A DNA stretch of 64,000 bases from Tagaea sp. GTDB lineage: Bacteria; Pseudomonadota; Alphaproteobacteria; CACIAM-22H2. Position 1 is the stretch's first letter. Each line of letters starts with the position of its first letter. Positions 1 to 22,447 of the stretch are shown piece by piece. The DNA lies in contig CBDIIB010000005.1 in assembly GCA_965279525.1 (NCBI GenBank), positions 352,001-416,000 of the forward strand, read 5' to 3'. The notes under the pieces were generated by a model. The model was not told the DNA's origin and searched no databases. It saw only the letters and a program-made list of their open reading frames with translations. Made by a program: the position numbers and the translations under genes.

Positions 1-25
1 AGATGCGTATCTCGATCAGGGTGGA

Positions 26-706
26 TTGCTTACTCGCAGAGGACCATCGATCATCCGCGACGTACGGCCGGTCACTTCTGCTCTTCCAACCAGTATTCTG
101 AAGCCTCACGATGGTGATCAGTTCTTTCAGTCTTATACATTGCGGCCGACTACGCTGCCCCGCACTAGTGGCCGGCTAACAGTAGGGTTCTCGGCCGATC
201 AATTCTCAGATGATGCAGTAGGCGAAGTATGGGAGGGGACGAATCCTGCATCTATCGGGCGGTTGCGCGAACGGCAACTTGCATCCGCATTATTGGGGGA
301 GGATTTCCCCGCACCATTCCCCAGCGAACTTGCCTATGTGCAGGCAAAAAAAGAGGGTAAAGCGCTTACTTCGTATCTAGTAATGGAGGATGGACGCACA
401 ATCATTACGGGAAAATTCGAATCAGTTGAGAACACTACTGAAAATGTAGCTGCTATAAATCCGTCCGCCAATCCGGTGGGATATTTGCAGGACCTGCGCT
501 CACGGGCACTGTCATTCGTTGACTTAAATTGCCCTCTAAGCGGCAAGGTCACATTCTGCGAGCGTCGAATGCTCGGCCCCGATATGACTGAATGGATGGT
601 TTCCTGGGCGGCAGATATGAACGGAGCGCCGGTGGCGCTGGAGCTACTGCACGAGCGGCGGTTTTCGGGCCTCGGTAGCACGGTCAATGTTGTCTTTGGC
701 GAGTAG
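26..706 (+). CDS. Hypothetical protein (true start may lie upstream of the window)
   Basis: 226-aa ORF whose stop overlaps the start of the next gene. No recognisable motif. Confidence 0.6.
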   Translation: MLTRRGPSIIRDVRPVTSALPTSILKPHDGDQFFQSYTLRPTTLPRTSGRLTVGFSADQFSDDAVGEVWEGTNPASIGRLRERQLASALLGEDFPAPFPSELAYVQAKKEGKALTSYLVMEDGRTIITGKFESVENTTENVAAINPSANPVGYLQDLRSRALSFVDLNCPLSGKVTFCERRMLGPDMTEWMVSWAADMNGAPVALELLHERRFSGLGSTVNVVFGE

Positions 707-2636
707 CCGCCGAAGCGCCGCCTTCGCGGCGGTTGCGTCCGCCGCAGCGCATGCCTTTCCATTGGCCGCGCCATGGAGTCTGGTACTCCTTTTAGTGCCA
801 TTTAGTGTTGGCCTGTTTGTTTTACGTAAGAGATCGAATCGCATCATTTGGCTGGTTCTTTGCACAAGCATTGCTGGCGCTGTTCTTGCCGGTATAGCTC
901 CGGCACCAATTGCCATTGCATCTCTCTCCTTCACAGTATTGATATTTGTTGGCGCAGCTAGCGTCGGAGCTGCGCTGCTACTACTCAACATGTCTGTGAT
1001 TGGTAGTGCTGAGATGATGCTCGCACAGACGCTTGATATGATCGGACTAGAAGCAGCTGCGCCAGCAATGTTGACAACGGCAGTCTTGGTGATCGCTCGA
1101 CCCTCCGCTATTTCCGCTGGGGTTTGTTTAGCGGCAGTCTCCGCAATAGCTGCTCTTGTTGCTGACAAAATCGCCTCTCACCCGTATGCATTAATGATCG
1201 CCGCAGCAGTTCCGGCCACCATCTTTTCTGTTGTCGTATGTTTTGTTTCCGAGTCTTCACCAAGAGCCCGCTCTCTCGTGTTTATTGCCATTGCTTTCGG
1301 CTTGCTACTGCCTTGGGCAGCTACTCCCCCGAGATCGTGGGGCGAGATATTTGTTCTATTGCCAGATGCATCGGACACATACGAGGCACAGTTCTTTAAG
1401 AACTATACCGACGCCCTCAGATTTGCAGGCATACGAGCGGAGAGGGTTACTCGACTAAACGACATACCATCAAGATCATTGGTACTCATGCCGTGGACAT
1501 CCGCAGATTTTAAATCTGCGGATGACAACGAGATGCTCAAAAGCATAGGGCAGCTAGCTCAAGGTCATCAATGGACCGTTATCGTAGGCGGGGAGCATAC
1601 CAACTTGGGCGGTGCGGCGGACCGGATAGAAGCCATGAGCGGAAAGCCTTTTCTGCGCCGAGACCTCACAGTGCCGCCGTACAATACTGATGACTCTGGT
1701 CCTTTACACGTCTCTGATCTTCGTGAGTGGCCGCATGGAAGTATTTTGAATCGCGGCGCAAGCGTCGAAATAATGTCGCTTCTCGATAAAGTGCTGTTAG
1801 CCGGAGACGGATGGTGGGCAGAGCCCGACTTGGGCGAATGGCTGTGGGTCGGTGACTATATTTGGCGTTCAGGAGAGCGCGCCGGCCGAATGGCCTTGGC
1901 AATCGCTTCAGATTCAGGCGGTGCCCGCTGGATCATTGTTGGCGACAATAGCTTTTTCCTAAGTAACCAAATTTACGCTGATCCACGTACTTTGCTTCGA
2001 TTGATTGAACTCGCCTCGCTTTGGCCTGCTCTTGTTAAAGACATTGCGATTGGATTTCTCGCTATAGCAGGTTGCTTGCTTATGCTTGCTCACGTCACGT
2101 TAGCCGAAGCTAGCATCACGATGTCTTCCGTCTTTTTTGTAGTTTCTGGCATCTATATATTTCTATTTCCAACACCAGAGAGCAGTAGGTGGAGGGATAC
2201 ATACGTTGACCAAATTGGATTTGATGAAAGAAATTTCAACCTGGCATTCACGGAGAGCCCGCTACTTACAAACAGTAGGCGCCTGATGCGATTGAAGGGT
2301 TCATTCACCGGTGAATTTGAAGTTCCTCACGGAAACGCAATTATCTTTTTGCACGTTGATGGAACGATGACGGCTGGCAAAGCACGACTTACTAACTGCC
2401 GCCGGCTAGGTGCGCTTGCGCTTGAAGAAGGGCCGTACCTGATGGACGCCCAAGCCTGCCGCGTTACAGGTGCGGATAGAATTTTGATTGGTACTCCAGA
2501 AGCTGCTGTCGCATTTTCGATTCAATACGGATTGTCTGAAGCAATTTTTATTCTGGACACCGTCTTTCTAGGGCAAAAGGCGCCATCGAGTAATGCGGAT
2601 TGGTTGATTCGGGAGATGGCGATTGAGAAACGATAA
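687..2636 (+). CDS. Multi-pass membrane protein with a soluble alpha/beta domain (DUF4350/class I glutamine amidotransferase-like, tentative)
   Basis: 649-aa ORF with several N-terminal hydrophobic segments, a soluble region containing TVIVGGEHTN and WIIVGDNSFF, two more TM segments and a C-terminal soluble domain. Confidence 0.65.
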   Translation: MLSLASSRRSAAFAAVASAAAHAFPLAAPWSLVLLLVPFSVGLFVLRKRSNRIIWLVLCTSIAGAVLAGIAPAPIAIASLSFTVLIFVGAASVGAALLLLNMSVIGSAEMMLAQTLDMIGLEAAAPAMLTTAVLVIARPSAISAGVCLAAVSAIAALVADKIASHPYALMIAAAVPATIFSVVVCFVSESSPRARSLVFIAIAFGLLLPWAATPPRSWGEIFVLLPDASDTYEAQFFKNYTDALRFAGIRAERVTRLNDIPSRSLVLMPWTSADFKSADDNEMLKSIGQLAQGHQWTVIVGGEHTNLGGAADRIEAMSGKPFLRRDLTVPPYNTDDSGPLHVSDLREWPHGSILNRGASVEIMSLLDKVLLAGDGWWAEPDLGEWLWVGDYIWRSGERAGRMALAIASDSGGARWIIVGDNSFFLSNQIYADPRTLLRLIELASLWPALVKDIAIGFLAIAGCLLMLAHVTLAEASITMSSVFFVVSGIYIFLFPTPESSRWRDTYVDQIGFDERNFNLAFTESPLLTNSRRLMRLKGSFTGEFEVPHGNAIIFLHVDGTMTAGKARLTNCRRLGALALEEGPYLMDAQACRVTGADRILIGTPEAAVAFSIQYGLSEAIFILDTVFLGQKAPSSNADWLIREMAIEKR

Positions 2637-2646
2637 ATCGCCTACG

Positions 2647-3063
2647 ATGATTGGACTACTGCCAGGTGGCGTGCCTCAACGGGAACCGTACCCTTCGGAA
2701 GACGTGTTTTTTAAAAGAAATATGCACATCTCAGGATTGGCAGCCGAAGATAATTCGGTTGTTCTAAACCCGTACAGCAATCTCTCTCCGACAGAGCGTC
2801 GCTGCGTTGCACTTAACGAAGCCGCCAGAGTTGTTATGCGGCGAGACCCTGAGTTGCAGCCCATATTCGATCTCACACCCGAACAGCTTGCTTCCTTCCA
2901 GAGCTACGGTCCCTTAGATAGCGTCAGAGCTACCGTAGCAGCGCGAATTCTTTCAGGTGATCCTAGTGCGTTGAGACCGACCGTCGACCAAACTAAGTTT
3001 GTGAAGAAACTCGCCACCGCGATGGGCCTCAAGAAGCGTAAGGCGGCCCCTTCCCCTGGCTAG
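2647..3063 (+). CDS. Hypothetical phage-like protein
   Basis: ATG at 2647, in frame with ORF 2623..3063. The segment REPYPSE..FFK...GLAAED..V.LNPYS.LS..E...VA.NEAAR resembles small uncharacterised phage proteins (recalled, not searched). Confidence 0.65.
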   Translation: MIGLLPGGVPQREPYPSEDVFFKRNMHISGLAAEDNSVVLNPYSNLSPTERRCVALNEAARVVMRRDPELQPIFDLTPEQLASFQSYGPLDSVRATVAARILSGDPSALRPTVDQTKFVKKLATAMGLKKRKAAPSPG

Positions 3064-3131: not shown

Positions 3132-3385
3132 TGTCCGTCGTCAGAATAATCGGGACGTTTTGAGGCGGCTGTTAACGGAGGCTTCGGCGCATCTGCGTTG
3201 GCAGTATTGGCGGTCGCTTGCCGATGCCAGCAAGCGGCGGTGCTCGATGGTTCTGCGCTTGATCGTCTCCCTCCTTTCCAGAATGGCCTGCCCACGTTCG
3301 GTATAGACGTTGGCCCGCGCGAGGATACTGAGGCGCTCGTGGTATCGGCAGTAGTTGTAGTGATCGACGAAGCTGCCGATGCTCG
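3132..3385 (-). pseudogene. IS3-family transposase 3' remnant with right terminal inverted repeat
   Basis: Minus-strand peptide FVDHYNYCRYHERLSILARANVYTERGQAILERRETIKRRT matches an IS3-type rve C-terminus. Terminal sequence TGTCCGTCGTCAGAATAAT starts at 3132. Confidence 0.75.
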
Positions 3386-3397
3386 CGTAGTGAAGAG

Positions 3398-3631
3398 TCA
3401 CTTCGCAGCAGTTGCCCTGAAACGCCCCCCAGTCAGAGCGGCGCGTAACTCTTTCTGGAACCGCCCCTGTATCTGAATCGTACCCTTCTTGGGCCACCAG
3501 TTGAGTATTTGCCCAAGGTCAGTCGTGAACGTCGCCCGCCCATCCTGGCCGCCCAAAGCCCAAGTACCGACGATACCGAGCCGAGTGATCTCATTGCGTA
3601 GCTCACTGATGGTTCCTACGAATGGCTCCAT
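3398..3631 (-). CDS. Small hypothetical protein
   Basis: 77-aa ORF with AGAAGGA upstream. The GQILNWWPKKGTIQIQG motif resembles the N-terminal domain of TIR-like predicted nucleotide-binding proteins. Confidence 0.6.
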   Translation of the reverse strand: MEPFVGTISELRNEITRLGIVGTWALGGQDGRATFTTDLGQILNWWPKKGTIQIQGRFQKELRAALTGGRFRATAAK

Positions 3632-4086
3632 TCGATGTGATCCTTCTCTGTTGACGGTCGGCTAGGCCCCGTTGCCATGCCATTCGAGTCAGGAGAGTCG
3701 CCACACACTGGCAACCACCCTCTTGGTACCTACCTAGCCAGATTGGAACGGCCGACTCAGTGACTCTCTAATGGCGATTGAGGCCCTATGGACTTGGGCT
3801 TTCTAGGACCCCCGTGGGGGATATGCCTTGCCTCGTGTGCCTGCCTTATTGGCAGATCAGAAGGGGCATCTCCTGTTAAGGCCTTGATACTGAGTCATTG
3901 TCCGTAACAGTGACCATCGAATCCAGTAACTGATCTTAGTTATAGTTATTACTATTATTCTTCTCGCAAAAAGGGCCGTAATTTCCCTCGGATCTAGGCG
4001 GTCTCTCCCTTTCTATCTTCCAAATTCATCCCTACAGCACCCTTACAATGGGGTAGTGCGCTTCCAACCGTGGGCGAAGCCCACAG

Positions 4087-5532
4087 TCACACCAACTCCT
4101 TCCGATAGGCCCCCCGAAGGGGGTAATCATTCTTTCCATCCGAGATCATAAACAGACTGGCATCCATAAGATTGGATCCATCGATCATCTGCTTACCGTC
4201 ACGATCTGTGATCTTCAGGCTAATCAGTACCCCGAATCGTTCCTGGAACACTTGGACCATGACCCTCTGAAGCTCCTCAGAACGCTCCTCCGCAATGATG
4301 AAGCTGTCGTGGACCGGGAGTACGGGGATCCCTTCGTCTGCGAAGTGCAGCATGACCGTCTCTGCGAGCTGGCTCTCCCAGAACTGCATGGTCTTGCCTA
4401 CGCCCGTATGGAACAGGTCGCTCAGCGGAGCGAAGTGCAATTTGACCCTCTCGACGAACTCGCCCCGTGTGACGCCGAGTACTGTCTCGTCATAACCCTC
4501 TTCCAGGTCGAAGCTCTTGAGATGAGGTTGACGAACCCATCCCCTCTTATCGTTGATCAGGGCATTGAAGGTCTTCTTCACCCATATCCGAACGATTGGC
4601 GGGGCATCCGGGAACGCGTCGTACACATCGGCAGGAATTGGCATGCTCCGGGATGCGTAGAGCATGCTCGGGTGTAGGCCGACATAGTCCACTTCGACCG
4701 TCTGATACCCATCGATGGTCAGATATGGTCGGTACTCCTTAGGCATGTTCTGCCATGAGGATTGGAAGAATCGACCACCGCGCTGGAAGCTTGCATCGTT
4801 GAACTTGCGCACAAGAGTTCGCTTGCGTGGATCGAATGGTCGACGGAGCTTCGTGCCTATCATGCGCCGGTTGAGATCGATCAAATCGCCGGGCAAGAGA
4901 TCCATTGCAATCTTGGAGTCTCGGAGTACCGCGTTGATGGTCCCAATATTCGCCCGCTTCGCCTCTGTTTCAGGCGTCGGATCGAACTGGATCGGTTTCT
5001 TCATCGCGTCCCGAAGCTCGATATCCGCGTGCCAGTGGTCAACGTGCTCGATCTCATCTGGGGAGAAATCGGGAATTGCTACGATCCGCTCGATCAGGCT
5101 CGGCGTAGCTCGTATCTTCGTGTTGAAGTACATCGCGGCACTCGGCGCATACAATCCTTTCTTGGCAATCTCGATAAGCCCGGCAGTCCGCAGTCCTTCG
5201 TACGCTTGGATCATCGGGCGATAGGTTATCCCTCGCTGGGCATATCGACTGGTTGCCGCATATTTGCTCCGATTGAGATCGATGCCGACGGTGCACCCGG
5301 GCAGATTTTCATGCGCAAGAATCAGGTTCAGAAGGAGAGCGCGAAGAGCTGCAGTAAGGCGTTCAAGCTCCATCTTGGAGCGCTTGCGACGACCCGAAGC
5401 CGTGTCAATCTCAGTGGCGATCTGTGAGACGAGGACATCGAAGCCCTCGTTCTCAATCACGTAGCTGGGGTCAATCGGAACAGAAAGTATTTGGGACGGG
5501 CTGACTGCATCACTCAAGTTGCGATCCTTCAT
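4087..5532 (-). CDS. Divergent family-A (PolA/T7 superfamily, TV-Pol-like) polymerase lacking exonuclease domains
   Basis: Motifs in PolA order: GGRFF..WQNMP, motif A VEVDYVGLH, motif B RIWVKKTFNALIN, QFWES and motif C LPVHDSFI. Confidence 0.75.
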   Translation of the reverse strand: MKDRNLSDAVSPSQILSVPIDPSYVIENEGFDVLVSQIATEIDTASGRRKRSKMELERLTAALRALLLNLILAHENLPGCTVGIDLNRSKYAATSRYAQRGITYRPMIQAYEGLRTAGLIEIAKKGLYAPSAAMYFNTKIRATPSLIERIVAIPDFSPDEIEHVDHWHADIELRDAMKKPIQFDPTPETEAKRANIGTINAVLRDSKIAMDLLPGDLIDLNRRMIGTKLRRPFDPRKRTLVRKFNDASFQRGGRFFQSSWQNMPKEYRPYLTIDGYQTVEVDYVGLHPSMLYASRSMPIPADVYDAFPDAPPIVRIWVKKTFNALINDKRGWVRQPHLKSFDLEEGYDETVLGVTRGEFVERVKLHFAPLSDLFHTGVGKTMQFWESQLAETVMLHFADEGIPVLPVHDSFIIAEERSEELQRVMVQVFQERFGVLISLKITDRDGKQMIDGSNLMDASLFMISDGKNDYPLRGAYRKELV

Positions 5533-5770
5533 GGCAGCAAAGGACGCAAGGGGCGTCGTCGCCCAACGACGTCCTTAGATTCTGAGATGAGATTGACTTG
5601 AGGCAGTGGCAAGACCGAGTCTTCGCGTGCTGCCTACATATTACTTGGGCATCACGCGGAGACTTTTCAAGTGAGTGACGATGAATTTCTCACATCGCAG
5701 TTTCACCCGCCCCTGTCTTTGGCAGTGAAGCTCGAAGGGACTTGGAAATCCCCGTTGAGGCTAGGCCCTT

Positions 5771-6793
5771 TCAGGGAACTGCATCCGGTGGTGACAGCAG
5801 TACCGGGCCAGATTCGGTAGCAACTTGCTTGGCCGATAGGCATGCGAGCTTCTTCGCAACATCTTCAGGCCGAAGATGCGTGTAGCGAAACAGCATGCGC
5901 GGATCCCGGTGCCCGGAGATCAGGGCGACTTCGGGGATGCTCAACCCGGCTTCGAAGAACCGGCTAACAGCCTCGTGGCGCAGGTCGTGAAAATGTAGAT
6001 CCTCGATCCCAGCTCGACGCACTGCGCGATACCACCTCATTTGGATTGCCCTCGGACTCCACTCGAATATGCGATGCCCCTCTCTGCACGGAAGGCTCTG
6101 AAGGATAGCTACGGCAACAGGAGTAAGCGGGATAGTTCGAGGGTAACCGTTCTTGGCTTCCCTAACGACGAGGAGACTAGAGGCTAGATCAATATCGGTC
6201 GGCTCAAGTCGGACAAGCTCGCCCCTTCGCAGGCCGGTCTCCAGCGCGAACAAGACAAGGCCATGGAACTTGGGATCGAGGGCCGCCAGCAATAGCCGCA
6301 TTTCCCCAGGCGCTATTCGCCGTGTCCGATGCCTGCCTGCCGCAGGCTTGCGAACCTGAATGAGGGCATCCGCCATCGGCATCGACCATTCGCGATGGGC
6401 ATACCGCAGAATTGTCTGCAGCAAACCAAGCTCCCGCCGGACAGTCTCGGTCGAACACGCAGCTAGGCGGCGATCACGATATTGGGCAAGGCAGGAGGCC
6501 GGAATCTGATGCATGGGAAGATGCATCCATTTTTCTCGCAGCATGACCGCGAGTAGCCCCACGCAATTCTCTTCGCGCCGCATCGAGACGGCAACTTCGG
6601 TTCGATAGCGTTCGACTACGTCGATCAAGGGTGGGGCAGTCAGAACCAAGGCCTCCCCGAGGTCGACCCGACGCTCGTGGAGCCGCGCCCATTGCTGGGC
6701 ATCCTGACGTGTTGAAAAGGTCTTGCTGAGCTTGTGTCCTGCGCGACGGACCTGAACCTGGTACATCGAGCCGCGACGACGAATGGTAGCCAT
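5771..6793 (-). CDS. Site-specific tyrosine integrase (Rci/HP1-like)
   Basis: N-terminal arm domain MATIRRRG..YQVQVRR. Catalytic motifs ETGLRRGE, K, FHDLRH and SGH...MLFRY. ATG at 6793. Confidence 0.92.
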   Translation of the reverse strand: MATIRRRGSMYQVQVRRAGHKLSKTFSTRQDAQQWARLHERRVDLGEALVLTAPPLIDVVERYRTEVAVSMRREENCVGLLAVMLREKWMHLPMHQIPASCLAQYRDRRLAACSTETVRRELGLLQTILRYAHREWSMPMADALIQVRKPAAGRHRTRRIAPGEMRLLLAALDPKFHGLVLFALETGLRRGELVRLEPTDIDLASSLLVVREAKNGYPRTIPLTPVAVAILQSLPCREGHRIFEWSPRAIQMRWYRAVRRAGIEDLHFHDLRHEAVSRFFEAGLSIPEVALISGHRDPRMLFRYTHLRPEDVAKKLACLSAKQVATESGPVLLSPPDAVP

Positions 6794-6795
6794 GC

Positions 6796-6823
6796 TGTGA
6801 CACCCGTGTGACACGCGTGACCA
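6796..6823. repeat. Short direct repeats TGTGACAC x2 plus GTGACCA; likely integrase arm-binding sites
   Basis: TGTGACAC at 6796 and 6807 and GTGACCA at 6817, lying between the integrase start and the island junction. Confidence 0.55.
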
Positions 6824-6845
6824 GCAACCGGGCTAACCCTTTGAC

Positions 6846-6927
6846 AAAAAGAAAGGGCCGCGCCCGAAGGCACGGCCCAAGTTTAGGGAGGAAACGCCCA
6901 CGAAACGGCCCGGAGGCCATTTCGAGC
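6846..6927 (-). ncRNA. suhB: suhB/MmgR (alpha-r8)-family small RNA
   Basis: Minus strand reads: hairpin CGAAATGGCC-TCCG-GGCCGTTTCG, conserved core GGGCGTTTCCTCCCTAAACTT, then terminator GGGCCGTGCC-TTCG-GGCGCGGCCC followed by TTTCTTTTT. The 5' end is approximate. Confidence 0.85.
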
Positions 6928-6940
6928 TGCGACAAATCAA

Positions 6941-7103
6941 TGTCGCACTGCACAATTTAATTGTTGCGGCGCAAAAATCAAGGGCAATTATGCGGTGACC
7001 ATCTGAAATCTCATGATTAATTTGTAGTACTTCGATTATCCACCTGATTTATTTGTGCTATTCGAGGCCCTCTCAGACCCCCTCCCTTGCCGCAATGCAG
7101 CAT
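6941..7103. promoter_or_regulatory. Three PhaR/AniA-like boxes between the sRNA and mlaE
   Basis: TGTCGCACTGCACAA (6941), TTGTTGCGGCGCAAAA (6961) and TTGCCGCAATGCAGCAT (~7087-7103) resemble the TGC-rich PhaR/AniA motif known upstream of mmgR. Confidence 0.55.
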
Positions 7104-19201: not shown

Positions 19202-21220
19202 ATGGCCGCGAAGAAGAAGCCCGTCAAGAAAGCCCCCGCCAAGAAGGCCGTCAAGAAGCCTGACCCCAAGAAAGCAGCGGCCAAGAAGCCGGTCGCCAAG
19301 AAGGTGCTGCCCAAAAAGGTCGTCGCCAAAAAGCCGGCGCCCAAGCCGGTCGCGAAGAAGGTCGCCGCCAAGCCGGCCCCCAAGCTGGCGGCCAAGAAGC
19401 CCGCCCCCAAGATCGTCGCGAAGCCGGCGGCAAAGCCGGTCGCCAAAACCGTCGCCGCGAAGCCGATGCCTGTCGCCAAGCCCGTCGCCAAGCCGGTCGT
19501 GGCCGCCAAGCCCGTGCCGGTGGCAAAGCCGGTCGTGGCCAAGCCGGTGGCCCCGCCGCCGCCGCCCAAGCCCGTCGTCAAGCCGCCCGTGAAGGGGCCC
19601 GGCGGCACGGTGCTGCCCGACGACGGCGTCAAGCTCGACGCGAAGATCACGCCCGACCAGCTGACGATCCTCACGCCCGAAGCGCTCGCCTTCGTCGTCG
19701 AGCTCGAGCGCAAGTTCGGTGCCCGCCGCCATGAACTGCTCGCCGCGCGCGTCGAGCGCCAGAAGCGCCTCGATGCCGGCGAGCGGCCCGACTTCCTGCC
19801 GCAGACGCGCTCGGTGCGCGAGGCGGAATGGACCGTGGCCCCGCTGCCCAAGGACATCCTCGACCGCCGCGTCGAGATCACCGGGCCCGTCGACCGCAAG
19901 ATGGTCATCAACGCGCTCAACTCCGGCGCCAACGTGTTCATGGCCGATTTCGAGGATGCCTCGACGCCGACCTGGGCCAACCTGATCGAGGGCCACGTCA
20001 ACCTGCGCGACGCCAACGCCGGCACGATCGCGTTCACCGATCCCAAGACCGCCAAGGCCTACAAGCTCAACCCCAAGCATGCCGTGCTGTTCGTGCGCCC
20101 GCGCGGCTGGGCGCTGCCCGAGAAGCACCTCACCGTCGACGGCAAGCCGATGTCGGGTTCGCTGTTCGATTTCGGCATGTACTTCTTCCATAACGCCAAG
20201 CAGCTGCTGAAGAAGGGCTCGGGCCCGTATTTCTACCTGCCGAAGATGGAAAGCCATCTCGAAGCGCGCCTGTGGAACGACGTGTTCGTCCACGCGCAGG
20301 AGAAGCTCGGCGTCAAGCGCGGCTCGATCAAGGCAACAGTGTTGATCGAGACGATCCTCGCCGCGTTCGAGATGGACGAGATCCTCAACGAGCTGCGCGA
20401 GCACTCGGCCGGCCTCAATTGCGGGCGCTGGGACTACATCTTCAGTTTCATCAAGAAGTTCGCCGAGCAGCCCAACTACCTGATGCCCGACCGCGGCCAG
20501 GTGACGATGACCTCGCACTTCATGCGCTCGTACAGCCAGCTGCTGATCAAGACGTGCCACCGGCGCAACGTGCACGCGATGGGCGGCATGGCCGCCCAGA
20601 TCCCGATCAAGGACGATCCGGCCGCCAACGAGGCCGCGATGGCCAAGGTGCGCGCCGACAAGGACCGCGAGGCGACCGACGGCCACGACGGCACGTGGGT
20701 GGCGCATCCGGGTCTCGTTCCCATCGCCAAGGCGGTGTTCGACGAGAAGATGAAGGACGCCAACCAGATCGCGCGCAAGCGCCAGGACGTGCATGTCGTG
20801 GCGGCCGACCTCATCCAGGTGCCGGCCGGCACGATGACGGAAGCGGGCCTGCGGCAGAACTGCGCGGTGGGCATCGGCTATCTGGAAGCGTGGCTGCGCG
20901 GCCTTGGCTGCGTGCCGCTCTACAACCTGATGGAAGACGCCGCGACCGCCGAGATCAGCCGCGCGCAGGTCTGGCAGCAGCTGCGCCACTCGGCCACGCT
21001 CGAGGACGGGCGCGCGGTCGACAAGGCGATGATGCGCAAGATCGTCGAGGAGGAACTCGACAAGATCCGCAAGTCGGTCGGCGCCGAACGCTACGGCAAA
21101 GGGCGCTTCAAGGAAGCGGCGAAGATGTTCATCGAGCTGTGCGAGGCCGACCGCTTCCCCGACTTCCTGACGATCCCGGCCTATGACTGGATCATCGCGA
21201 ACGAGTCGAAGATCGGGTGA
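19202..21220 (+). CDS. aceB: Malate synthase A with Lys/Ala/Pro-rich N-terminal extension
   Basis: [38 protein letters not shown] and [12 protein letters not shown]. The first ~130 aa are low-complexity K/A/P/V. Confidence 0.95.
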
Positions 21221-21225
21221 GGTCC

Positions 21226-21268
21226 CGGGAAACAGGTTACCACCGGTTACGGTAACCTGTTTATCCCG
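21226..21268. terminator. Inverted repeat downstream of aceB (terminator-like)
   Basis: Perfect 12-bp stem: AAACAGGTTACC (21230-21241) / GGTAACCTGTTT (21251-21262). Confidence 0.55.
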
Positions 21269-21447
21269 CTGGAATCGCTTGCAGGTAACTTCCGTGCGCG
21301 CGGCAACGTATGACTCCGACGTTCAGCATCGCGTGTGCATGCCATTAATTTCGCGGACGGATCGATGCGACACGCGACGTCGCATCGATCCGTCACGCAA
21401 ATCTTGCAGTCATATTCGATTGTCAAAGAGCACGTCCCGAGGGTGTG

Positions 21448-21476
21448 AATATATTTACACACCCTGCAATTGTCAA
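21448..21476 (-). promoter_or_regulatory. Sigma70-like promoter TTGACA-N17-TATATT
   Basis: Minus strand reads TTGACA attgcagggtgtgtaaa TATATT. An imperfect palindrome at 21441-21464 overlaps it. Confidence 0.6.
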
Positions 21477-21658
21477 GATAAATAGCCTATAATATTTCCG
21501 CCGGGACAAGCCCGGTAAAAGTCCAGCCGGGCAATGCCCAATGCCGCGACTTCCGGAACCATCCCTATGGAAGGATGCCGGATACGGCACGCGCGGAATT
21601 CGACTTGAATTATCCTTAGAGTGTATATAATTCAGCCGGGTAATCTGAGGTGTGTTAA

Positions 21659-22447
21659 ATGCTGAAGACTGTTTGCGTCATCGGTTCGATGCTGATTTCC
21701 GTGCTGGTACCGCAGTGCCTGGCACAGTCGATCCACGAGCAACCAAATGGCACCCGGATCCTCGGAAGCTTCCAACTCGGCTCGGTAACGGTTCCCCTGC
21801 CGCCGGGAGAGTGGGTCCTGAACGGGCGAGGCGTATTCACTGTGAACGCGTCGACCGGTCCTCTTAAGGTCGGCGAAGCCTATCTGTCCGAGTCGAAAGA
21901 CGGCAAGGTGACCCGCATCATCTACGCGCGCGCGAATCTGGGCGGGGAATCGACCGGAGGCGGATGGACTCGCGACAGGAACGTCTGCGACCGGGTCAAC
22001 GTGATCCACGCCGAGTTCGACCGGCACTTCAATCCCAAGGAAGCCAAGTGCTGGATGGTGACCCATTTCTTCGATGGAACGCCGAACAATCCGTCCGACG
22101 CCTTCAGGGAATTCTACGCGTCACTCGCACAAAGCAAGCTCGATACGCCGAAGCTGCGCCTCAGTGCGGTCTATTTCCTGACGGACGCGACGAACTTCGT
22201 CTACGTGAACTACGCGTTCAATCCAGAGATCGTCGGCGTTCCGCTGGGAAGTCTCGAGCGCTGGGATTCGAGCGAATGGAATATCTTGCGAATCAACCTG
22301 TTCCCCGACCGCGTGAAATTCGCCGGAACGATCAAGTCGTTCGGTGAAGCGATGCTTCCCTTCGTCGAAAAAGGCCTGCAAGGCCGCATCAAGGCCGGCG
22401 AGTACGTTCCCGTCACGATCGAAGGCTGGCCGACCGGCGCGCAGTGA
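21659..22447 (+). CDS. Secreted hypothetical protein
   Basis: GAGG RBS, signal peptide (..VPQCLA), 262 aa, and lower GC than its neighbours. Confidence 0.75.
   Translation: MLKTVCVIGSMLISVLVPQCLAQSIHEQPNGTRILGSFQLGSVTVPLPPGEWVLNGRGVFTVNASTGPLKVGEAYLSESKDGKVTRIIYARANLGGESTGGGWTRDRNVCDRVNVIHAEFDRHFNPKEAKCWMVTHFFDGTPNNPSDAFREFYASLAQSKLDTPKLRLSAVYFLTDATNFVYVNYAFNPEIVGVPLGSLERWDSSEWNILRINLFPDRVKFAGTIKSFGEAMLPFVEKGLQGRIKAGEYVPVTIEGWPTGAQ

Follow-up and report, generated by a model that had tools for sequence, protein, structure and literature searches.

A TV-Pol and a tyrosine integrase at the core end of a site-specific island in the mmgR gene of Tagaea sp.

In the genome of the alphaproteobacterium Tagaea sp. 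(GenBank assembly GCA_965279525.1), two adjacent genes at the edge of a segment of low guanine-cytosine (GC) content, one coding for a tyrosine integrase and the other for a 481-residue protein that lacks a family assignment, raise the question of what kind of mobile element they belong to, and of how such an element could be copied. Both genes lie at the start of a 64,000-nucleotide stretch that is called the window here (positions 352,001 to 416,000 of contig CBDIIB010000005.1, hereafter C5). An earlier note, made from the letters of the sequence, had read them as the core of a little-described class of integrative element in which an enzyme resembling family-A DNA polymerases initiates replication. 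Of that interpretation, the core of integrase and family-A polymerase stands, while the novelty of the class, an origin-like signal and a role for a small neighboring gene do not. The two genes mark the core end of an integrative island of 10.4 kb that inserted site-specifically, and it is considered probable that such an island, with a recombinase and a polymerase of the TV-Pol type as its core, has its circular form copied through priming by the TV-Pol. For the window itself, the gains are a correct annotation, exact ends for the island, and the recognition of the small RNA (sRNA) gene mmgR as its attachment site.

Insertion into the mmgR gene

The first 7 kb of the window have a GC content of 0.49-0.59, versus 0.64-0.73 across nearly all of the remainder, and a GC scan of the genome places the low-GC stretch at about 348,500 to 359,000 of C5, with values near 0.55 inside it and near 0.68 in host DNA. 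The right edge of the island falls within the window, and its exact position is set by one of the two copies of a direct repeat, 105 bp long and perfect, which an exact-repeat script located. The right copy (attR) occupies 6843..6947, with no strand assigned, and the left copy (attL) lies 3.4-3.5 kb to the left of the window (C5:348468-348572, corresponding to L002:16468-16572); copy starts are 10,375 bp apart, which gives an island of 10.4 kb. No tRNA gene is involved at the ends. What cmscan recognizes at attR is mmgR, an alpha-proteobacterial sRNA (Rfam RF00519), on the minus strand at 6840..6924, with its terminator hairpin (6878-6855) and T run inside the attR copy, and a second whole mmgR is found at attL. 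Both copies are full length (model positions 1-77 of 77), with scores of 52.1 and 52.5 bits that exceed the gathering score (41), and it is the right-end copy that retains the host upstream DNA. Because a copy of the target comes with the element, mmgR is complete at both ends.

Empty sites were sought among 11 loci of the same genus with similarity to the left flank or to the repeat. In six of these (G019, G011, G013, G017, G007 and G014), the two flanks are joined through just one repeat copy, which identifies them as empty sites; four others carry the repeat and the right flank next to a different left side, and one lies at a contig end. The polymerase gene was found in one of the 21 genomes of the genus (16 of the 21 being at least 90% complete), and is single-copy in its own genome, which together with the empty sites points to a recent, site-specific insertion.

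The integrase is encoded just inside attR, on the minus strand at 5771..6814, with 347 residues from a GTG start at 6814 or 340 from the ATG at 6793. It matches PF00589 over residues 171-316 (E 2.1e-22; 80.1 bits versus a cut-off of 27.1) and the phrog_1 integrase family (E 4.1e-49). As the earlier note had described, integrase and polymerase genes are co-oriented at the edge of the island, both on the minus strand, and attR now defines that edge. The element is inserted into the mmgR sRNA gene by tyrosine integrase, and an sRNA gene as attachment site is the uncommon trait of the Tagaea member. Within the genus, the integrase has its closest relatives in three of 20 other genomes, at 36-53% identity, and a location at mmgR is not shown for them; a limited literature search found no earlier report of mmgR in this role, prior publication being possible.

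The start of the integrase gene lies 26-47 nucleotides past the mmgR terminator, on the same strand and at the copy on which the host promoter side is preserved. With both genes on one strand at this distance, transcription could conceivably run on from mmgR into the integrase gene. In genome G012 of the same genus (L101, G012:C136 3535-4930), a decayed mini-island of about 1.3 kb sits between two copies of the mmgR repeat. Of the integrase 5' region, 209 bp persist in it (89% identity), together with a 234-bp stretch that is 76% like the left inner end of the Tagaea island; it has an open reading frame (ORF) of 242 residues without Pfam match, and no intact integrase; it is a decayed relative at the same mmgR site.

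The 481-residue protein as a TV-Pol

Past a 238-nucleotide spacer (5533..5770, no strand) that has no similarity to other loci, the minus-strand ORF at 4087..5532 encodes the protein of 481 residues. It has no Pfam match at E<=0.1 and falls in no NCBIfam family; phrog_4756, a family of unknown function, is matched over almost the full length (E 5.2e-38). A word-indexed search yielded 111 relatives, the best of them 42% identical and none with a Pfam domain, whose annotations are nearly all hypothetical, except that two UniRef names start with 'DNA-directed DNA polymerase'. Searches against the sequences of PDB chains, both with the single sequence and with a profile, gave nothing significant. 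The protein carries the motifs VEVDYVGLH and PVHDSF, and in the family alignment (A1, 55 members) residues G253, R254, R268, E280, D282, Y304, K319, D409 and S410 are invariant, while D302, R315, H287 and H408, among others, are at least 90% conserved.

An AlphaFold model built from this alignment reached a mean predicted local distance difference test (pLDDT) score of 85.9 and a predicted template modeling (pTM) score of 0.86. When compared to the PDB with Foldseek, it matched 117 chains at E<=1e-3, with Bst polymerase as the best (2e-6), and among the matches listed (the best 50 of 117) all are family-A DNA polymerases (Bst, Taq, Klenow-type, apicoplast). A VIA-align run against 48,161 representative chains was topped by the apicoplast polymerase apPol (Z 12.9; 248 residues, 3.9 Å), and also returned Aquifex Pol I (Z 12.2), Pol nu (11.9), Pol theta (11.4) and Klenow (11.1), as well as yeast mitochondrial RNA polymerase (11.4) and T7 RNA polymerase (9.5). 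Most of these alignments cover residues about 162-450, a minimal polymerase core that is encoded by 4183..5049 on the minus strand. The alignment, the model and both structural comparisons agree in predicting a family-A polymerase fold, which bears out the family-A-like polymerase of the earlier note and specifies it as one of the TV-Pol type.

TV-Pols are defined by an N-terminal thumb of two antiparallel helices, a beta-hairpin that bears an invariant Arg, a palm whose two conserved Asp residues bind metal, and fingers with a conserved Asp and an RxxxK motif (Iyer, Abhiman and Aravind 2008, PMC2579912). In the model of the 481-residue protein, helices 187-205 and 214-225 precede the palm as a thumb would, and structural superposition on Pol I, Pol nu and mitochondrial RNA polymerase begins at residues 162-171 and extends to about 450. 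Strands 241-244 and 252-256 form the hairpin, which bears the invariant G253 and Arg254; the invariant Asp282 of motif A and Asp409 of motif C, the latter preceded by His408, are the palm pair; and the fingers hold Asp302 and the Arg315-x3-Lys319 pair with the expected R-x3-K spacing. Signs of a nuclease are absent: no Pfam domain is found in the 481 residues, residues 1-160 resemble a winged helix, and no nuclease gene is conserved nearby. The protein is a TV-Pol, consisting of thumb, palm and fingers without an exonuclease domain, and it shares with the TV-Pols described in 2008 all four domain features, the lack of an exonuclease domain and the presence of an extra N-terminal domain (PMC2579912).

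Bacterial Pol I (PF00476) has the same thumb-palm-fingers fold and the same catalytic Asp pair, but the 481-residue protein differs from it in lacking exonuclease domains and any Pfam or NCBIfam match, and its core of about 290 residues compares with 381 positions in the PF00476 profile. That profile detects the Pol I of the host at 518 bits, yet not the 481-residue protein. An hhalign comparison between the family profile and the host Pol I domain gave a weak match (probability 1.2%, E 0.045), whose register sets GGRF on TGRLS and VDYVGLH on FDYSQIE, namely Arg hairpin on Arg hairpin and motif A on motif A. In this weak match the nearly invariant His287 (window 4672-4674) aligns with the Glu of the Pol I DYSQIE motif, the steric gate by which Pol I discriminates between sugars.

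The N-terminal domain (residues 1-160; 5053..5532, minus strand) comprises, in the domain model, two long helices and a probable winged helix. When modeled separately it reached a pLDDT of 91.7, and its best structural matches are all winged-helix proteins, at weak scores (S19e, Z 7.1; MotA, MarR, PadR and CodY, Z 5-6). Foldseek returned nothing at E<=0.001 for this domain, the best match being at 0.024 or weaker, and a profile search of the PDB gave chance-level ExbD matches only. The model suggests that the domain is probably DNA-binding and winged-helix-like, which is to be taken as a lead, short of an assignment.

The same comparisons bear on the nature of the product. The protein could be a T7-like single-subunit RNA polymerase, transcribing the genes of the element or making an RNA primer or transcript, given that its fold matches mitochondrial and T7 RNA polymerases nearly as well as DNA polymerases, that His287 takes the motif A position aligned with the Pol I Glu, and that its motif C reads HDSF, as does that of T7 RNA polymerase. 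In addition, an N-terminal domain of DNA-binding appearance recalls the promoter-binding domains of phage RNA polymerases (PMC7581432). Against this, all 50 Foldseek matches listed and the four best VIA-align matches are DNA polymerases, CcPol, the family member that has been tested, makes DNA (PMC7581432), and there is no conserved downstream gene set for such an RNA polymerase to serve, so that a role as an RNA polymerase is judged improbable.

Recombinase and polymerase in related islands

A scan of one genome per species gave 263 candidate stretches, of which 243 were confirmed and the best 80 kept, as 79 loci. For the 76 loci with a polymerase ORF, the non-overlapping ORFs within 7 kb (923 ORFs) were clustered, and a tyrosine-recombinase cluster was found at 47 loci, a serine resolvase cluster (211 residues, PF00239) at 13, and either of them at 48. 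These are the sole neighbor clusters that exceed seven loci, the next-largest, a helix-turn-helix (HTH) protein, occurring at seven. The linkage to integrases that the earlier note had proposed to score is best seen where at least 5 kb of flank is available on both sides: 29 of these 34 loci have a recombinase within 7 kb (integrase in 28, resolvase in 10), and one of the other five has an integrase 7.5 kb off. At short-flank loci, a recombinase was seen in 19 of 42. When 60 candidate integrase ORFs were compared to Pfam, 53 matched PF00589, four matched DUF6538 only, which is the N-terminal domain of that integrase type, and three matched nothing. No helicase, primase or Rep cluster recurs among the 76 loci, where helicase-like matches are restriction subunits, and neither does any small neighbor such as a partner gene of the oligonucleotide/oligosaccharide-binding (OB) fold type.

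Attachment sites were likewise to be scored, and in addition to the 105-bp mmgR repeat of Tagaea, 22 loci (counted by eye) carry exact direct repeats of 17-81 bp that touch a tRNA gene beside the integrase, for Cys, Met, Arg, Ala, Val, Gly, Ser or Pro. Integrase and polymerase lie between these repeats, in elements of 5.6-13.5 kb, and nothing recognizable as a helicase or Rep is found in the smallest elements. The cargo of ten small elements consists of restriction-modification genes, DndB, AAA_21/OLD-like ATPases, DpnI-, Mrr- and AspBHI-type nucleases, or unknowns. Recombinase and TV-Pol thus form the constant core in a large family of islands that measure 5.6-13.5 kb and vary in cargo, mostly restriction or defense genes. 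Carrying such genes in marine and soil alphaproteobacteria, these elements offer a route for moving defense genes.

Most integrases at related loci are of a DUF6538 type of 520-600 residues. The 347-residue type recurs at L005, L052, L064, L066 and L076, with repeats of 50-81 bp where these were found, and in L066 (Roseibium) the gene order is identical to that of the Tagaea locus. The polymerase tree, a quick one with long branches, places the Tagaea polymerase as sister (approximate likelihood ratio test, aLRT, 96) to a Paracoccaceae/Roseobacteraceae clade that has the other integrase type, and the short type is scattered on it (five changes for six rows, versus a shuffled mean of 5.9). The distribution of integrase types disagrees with the polymerase tree, and recombinase modules appear, tentatively and from sequence comparison, to have been exchanged between elements. 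Insertion sequences (IS) with rve transposases lie in or beside related islands (L024, L014 and others), three of these loci falling in one cluster, a recurrence that fits the IS damage in the Tagaea island described below.

The steadiness of the recombinase linkage could also be explained by a polymerase that serves recombination or repair, through gap filling or through copying in a replicative transposition step, along lines set out by Iyer et al. (2008). Recombinases are its sole tight conserved linkage, with three kinds in PMC2579912 and two here. Neither an origin nor a helicase was found, as would suit such a role. Nevertheless, tyrosine-integrase insertion with short exact repeats at tRNA and sRNA genes is conservative, requiring no DNA synthesis, and the polymerase gene is single-copy in the genome; a recombination or repair function is therefore regarded as unlikely.

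The nature of the cargo evokes a further role for the polymerase, that of an anti-phage gene of the abortive-infection type, carried outside the mobility core. Restriction, Dnd-associated and AAA_21 genes are found on related islands, a PDC-S35 fragment lies in the Tagaea island, and relatives of the polymerase occur inside large phage genomes. The polymerase, however, matches no PADLOC model, and it stands constantly beside a recombinase while the cargo differs between loci, which makes a defense role very unlikely and favors its place in the core.

The polymerase family is large and unnamed, and has no Pfam or NCBIfam model: at E<=1e-3 a profile of the 55 members collects 12,839 clusters (50% identity), a number that falls to 6,413 with E<=1e-30. 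For want of such a model, its genes are annotated as hypothetical. Relatives of 22-26% identity, similar over the whole length (TM 0.6-0.7), occur in Aeromonas, Vibrio, Pseudoalteromonas and Rheinheimera phages with genomes of 115-145 kb, where genes are likewise annotated nearly all as hypothetical.

In all, 38 polymerase loci lie on contigs filed as viral. The elements could accordingly be phage satellites, amplified by the polymerase upon helper infection and packaged in helper capsids, and the size of 5.6-13.5 kb, the tRNA-gene integrase and the presence of an own replication gene do resemble satellites and tycheposons (10.1101/2020.12.28.424599). Capsid, terminase, packaging and helper-interference families, however, are unmatched in the Tagaea island and in the ten small elements, and several of the viral contigs measure 80-93 kb, being whole phages that carry the gene rather than satellites. 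A satellite lifestyle has, on this evidence, a low probability.

Such islands have precedents. A subset of TV-Pols with an uncharacterized N-terminal domain is reported to have a gamma-delta resolvase, lambda-type integrase or transposase as a frequent neighbor; the authors regard these neighborhoods as novel mobile elements, for which the wording 'replicative transposons' is used, and propose from context that the polymerase both primes and synthesizes (PMC2579912). The integrase and resolvase neighbors, the overlapping hosts (Rhodobacterales, Rhizobiales) and the proposed priming and synthesis are all shared with the loci described here. The hosts in the published alignment include Loktanella, Roseovarius, Sulfitobacter, Brucella, Methylobacterium and Rhodopseudomonas (PMC2579912), and the likeness rests on the described features, the overlap in host genera being at most suggestive. 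The Tagaea island belongs to this kind of TV-Pol element, and as the kind has been in print since 2008, the class is not new. The island differs in residing in an sRNA gene, and not in a tRNA gene or within the long repeats described for Brucella, and the consulted parts of PMC2579912 hold no attachment sites at tRNA genes, element sizes or cargo survey, unlike the present survey. Among titles and abstracts of the TV-Pol literature, no study dedicated to the alphaproteobacterial integrase-linked branch was found.

Pipolins are also integrative, repeat-flanked and loaded with defense cargo, with a single polymerase thought to prime itself (PMC11551731, PMC10061031), but their defining polymerase, piPolB, is of family B, and no island ORF matches a PolB family, the Tagaea polymerase being of family A; the two are analogous in design, without the island being a pipolin. 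Tycheposons share a tyrosine recombinase, insertion in tRNA genes and variable cargo, and many have their own replication genes; they differ in host (Prochlorococcus) and in their primase/helicase modules, and the account consulted names no TV-Pol (10.1101/2020.12.28.424599).

Proposed copying of the excised circle, and the cargo side

By inference, replication of the excised circle would be primed by the TV-Pol. Following excision, the circular form would be copied in steps in which the N-terminal domain places the TV-Pol on element DNA and the TV-Pol lays a first primer, which it then extends. Host replication proteins would subsequently take over, as the element has no helicase, and the resulting rise in circle copy number could give a better chance of retention or transfer.

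The biochemical reference for such a scheme is CcPol of SCCmec, a TV-Pol without N-terminal domain (counted as such in PMC2579912), which extends primers alone (Bebel et al. 2020, PMC7581432). De novo DNA priming by CcPol requires a bound small protein, MP (PMC7581432; PMC10061031), and a follow-up from 2023 extends the CcPol-MP pair to pairs of PolA and an SSB, a protein that binds single-stranded DNA, in Bacillota (PMC10061031). The two systems have in common a family-A domain without exonucleases, on a site-specific integrative element with defense-type cargo (PMC7581432, PMC10061031). CcPol, in contrast, lies in an operon with a helicase and is accompanied by large serine recombinases, whereas no conserved small partner or helicase was found in the Tagaea family, and the adjacent OB-fold partner and operon helicase by which PolA-SSB primases are recognized have no recurrent counterpart at the 76 loci.

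Several observations weigh against priming of the circle by the TV-Pol. CcPol primes with MP and works with a helicase, and as neither has a conserved counterpart here, priming by the 481-residue protein alone is an extrapolation. The winged-helix match of the N-terminal domain, at Z 7.1, falls in a range that is common for VIA-align, and with His287 at the position that the weak hhalign match pairs with the steric-gate Glu, both DNA and RNA are possible as product. No origin-like sequence (iterons, fold or conserved non-coding DNA) was found near the polymerase gene. Contigs from four public runs of one study hold the element and break off 30 nucleotides inside either repeat, in the manner of assembly graphs; these contig-only runs yielded no circle junction, empty-site read or copy-number signal. 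Finally, an IS remnant and a truncated cargo gene indicate that the element is decaying on one side and may no longer move.

In its most economical form, the scheme would have one protein, made of a winged-helix-like domain and a minimal family-A polymerase, find, prime and copy the element unaided by a partner SSB or by an element-encoded helicase, which is considered doubtful. If true, these islands of 5.6-13.5 kb would stand to family A as pipolins do to family B, and would be the smallest replicons of their design to prime themselves. Self-priming by a family-A polymerase bears on the origin of primases from polymerases, and since CcPol, a distant relative and as of 2020 the sole TV-Pol tested according to PMC7581432, was assayed with a partner that is absent from this branch, an assay of the present protein would show whether priming is possible for a family-A polymerase acting alone.

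Downstream of the polymerase gene lies a gene-free stretch of 455 nucleotides (3632..4086, no strand), which the earlier note had correctly described as some 450 bp of non-coding DNA with an AT-rich tract: it contains no ORF of at least 40 residues, and GC falls to 0.33-0.35 at about 3900-3989. The hairpins also reported there did not hold up, the stretch folding no better than chance (z -0.38; 36 of 100 shuffles fold equally well). No iteron-like repeats and no Rfam match were detected in it, nor any similarity to related loci (79 or more) or elsewhere in the genome, and sites resembling the DnaA-box consensus number two in the 12.4-kb locus versus 1.5 expected, with none in 3632-4086. An origin or a structured RNA in this stretch was rejected on these grounds.

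The small ORF that follows is indeed present, with 77 residues on the minus strand (3398..3631), though not as a partner of the polymerase. Its residues 1-61 match positions 1-60 of the 245-position PADLOC profile PDLC05003 (PDC-S35) at E 2.9e-8, and its end coincides exactly with the start of an IS fragment (3141..3397, minus strand), the C-terminal remnant of a DDE (rve) transposase. By tblastn, this remnant shows 54% identity to residues 270-319 of L024:7275-8252, an rve/rve_3 protein with HTH, and the region has an 84% DNA match to C5:1168681-1168930. A PDC-S35-type start that ends exactly at an IS remnant identifies the 77-residue ORF as the stump of a cargo gene destroyed by the IS. It was rejected as a partner similar to MP or SSB, being a truncated PDC-S35 cargo gene with no homologue near any other polymerase locus. 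The IS damage is on the cargo side; integrase, polymerase and both repeats are intact.

The cargo block itself occupies 1..3063 on the plus strand and runs left past the window (L002:17054-20000) to attL. It encodes a redoxin (PF08534), a Cys-rich protein of 120 residues that ends in a run of Gly-Cys-Ser-type triplets, an 892-residue protein, membrane-like by eye, with weak DUF4350 and ABC_transp_aux matches below the Pfam cut-off, a 649-residue protein, also membrane-like by eye, and a 146-residue protein, the last two without any match. No PADLOC match was obtained in this block. Helicase, primase, Rep, relaxase and capsid families are not matched in any island ORF, a negative that extends to the ORFs with a match, three cargo ORFs having matched nothing at all. 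The ordinary prophage, or integrative and conjugative element, with a replicase of its own that the earlier note had weighed against its proposal was not encountered: what else the island contains fits neither description, and a further replicase was looked for in vain. Inspection of the two spacers revealed no plausible excisionase ORF of at least 25 residues, the ORFs there not having been scanned against families. Elsewhere in the window, positions 21001-22000 show a second dip in GC content, to 0.574 versus about 0.68 around it.

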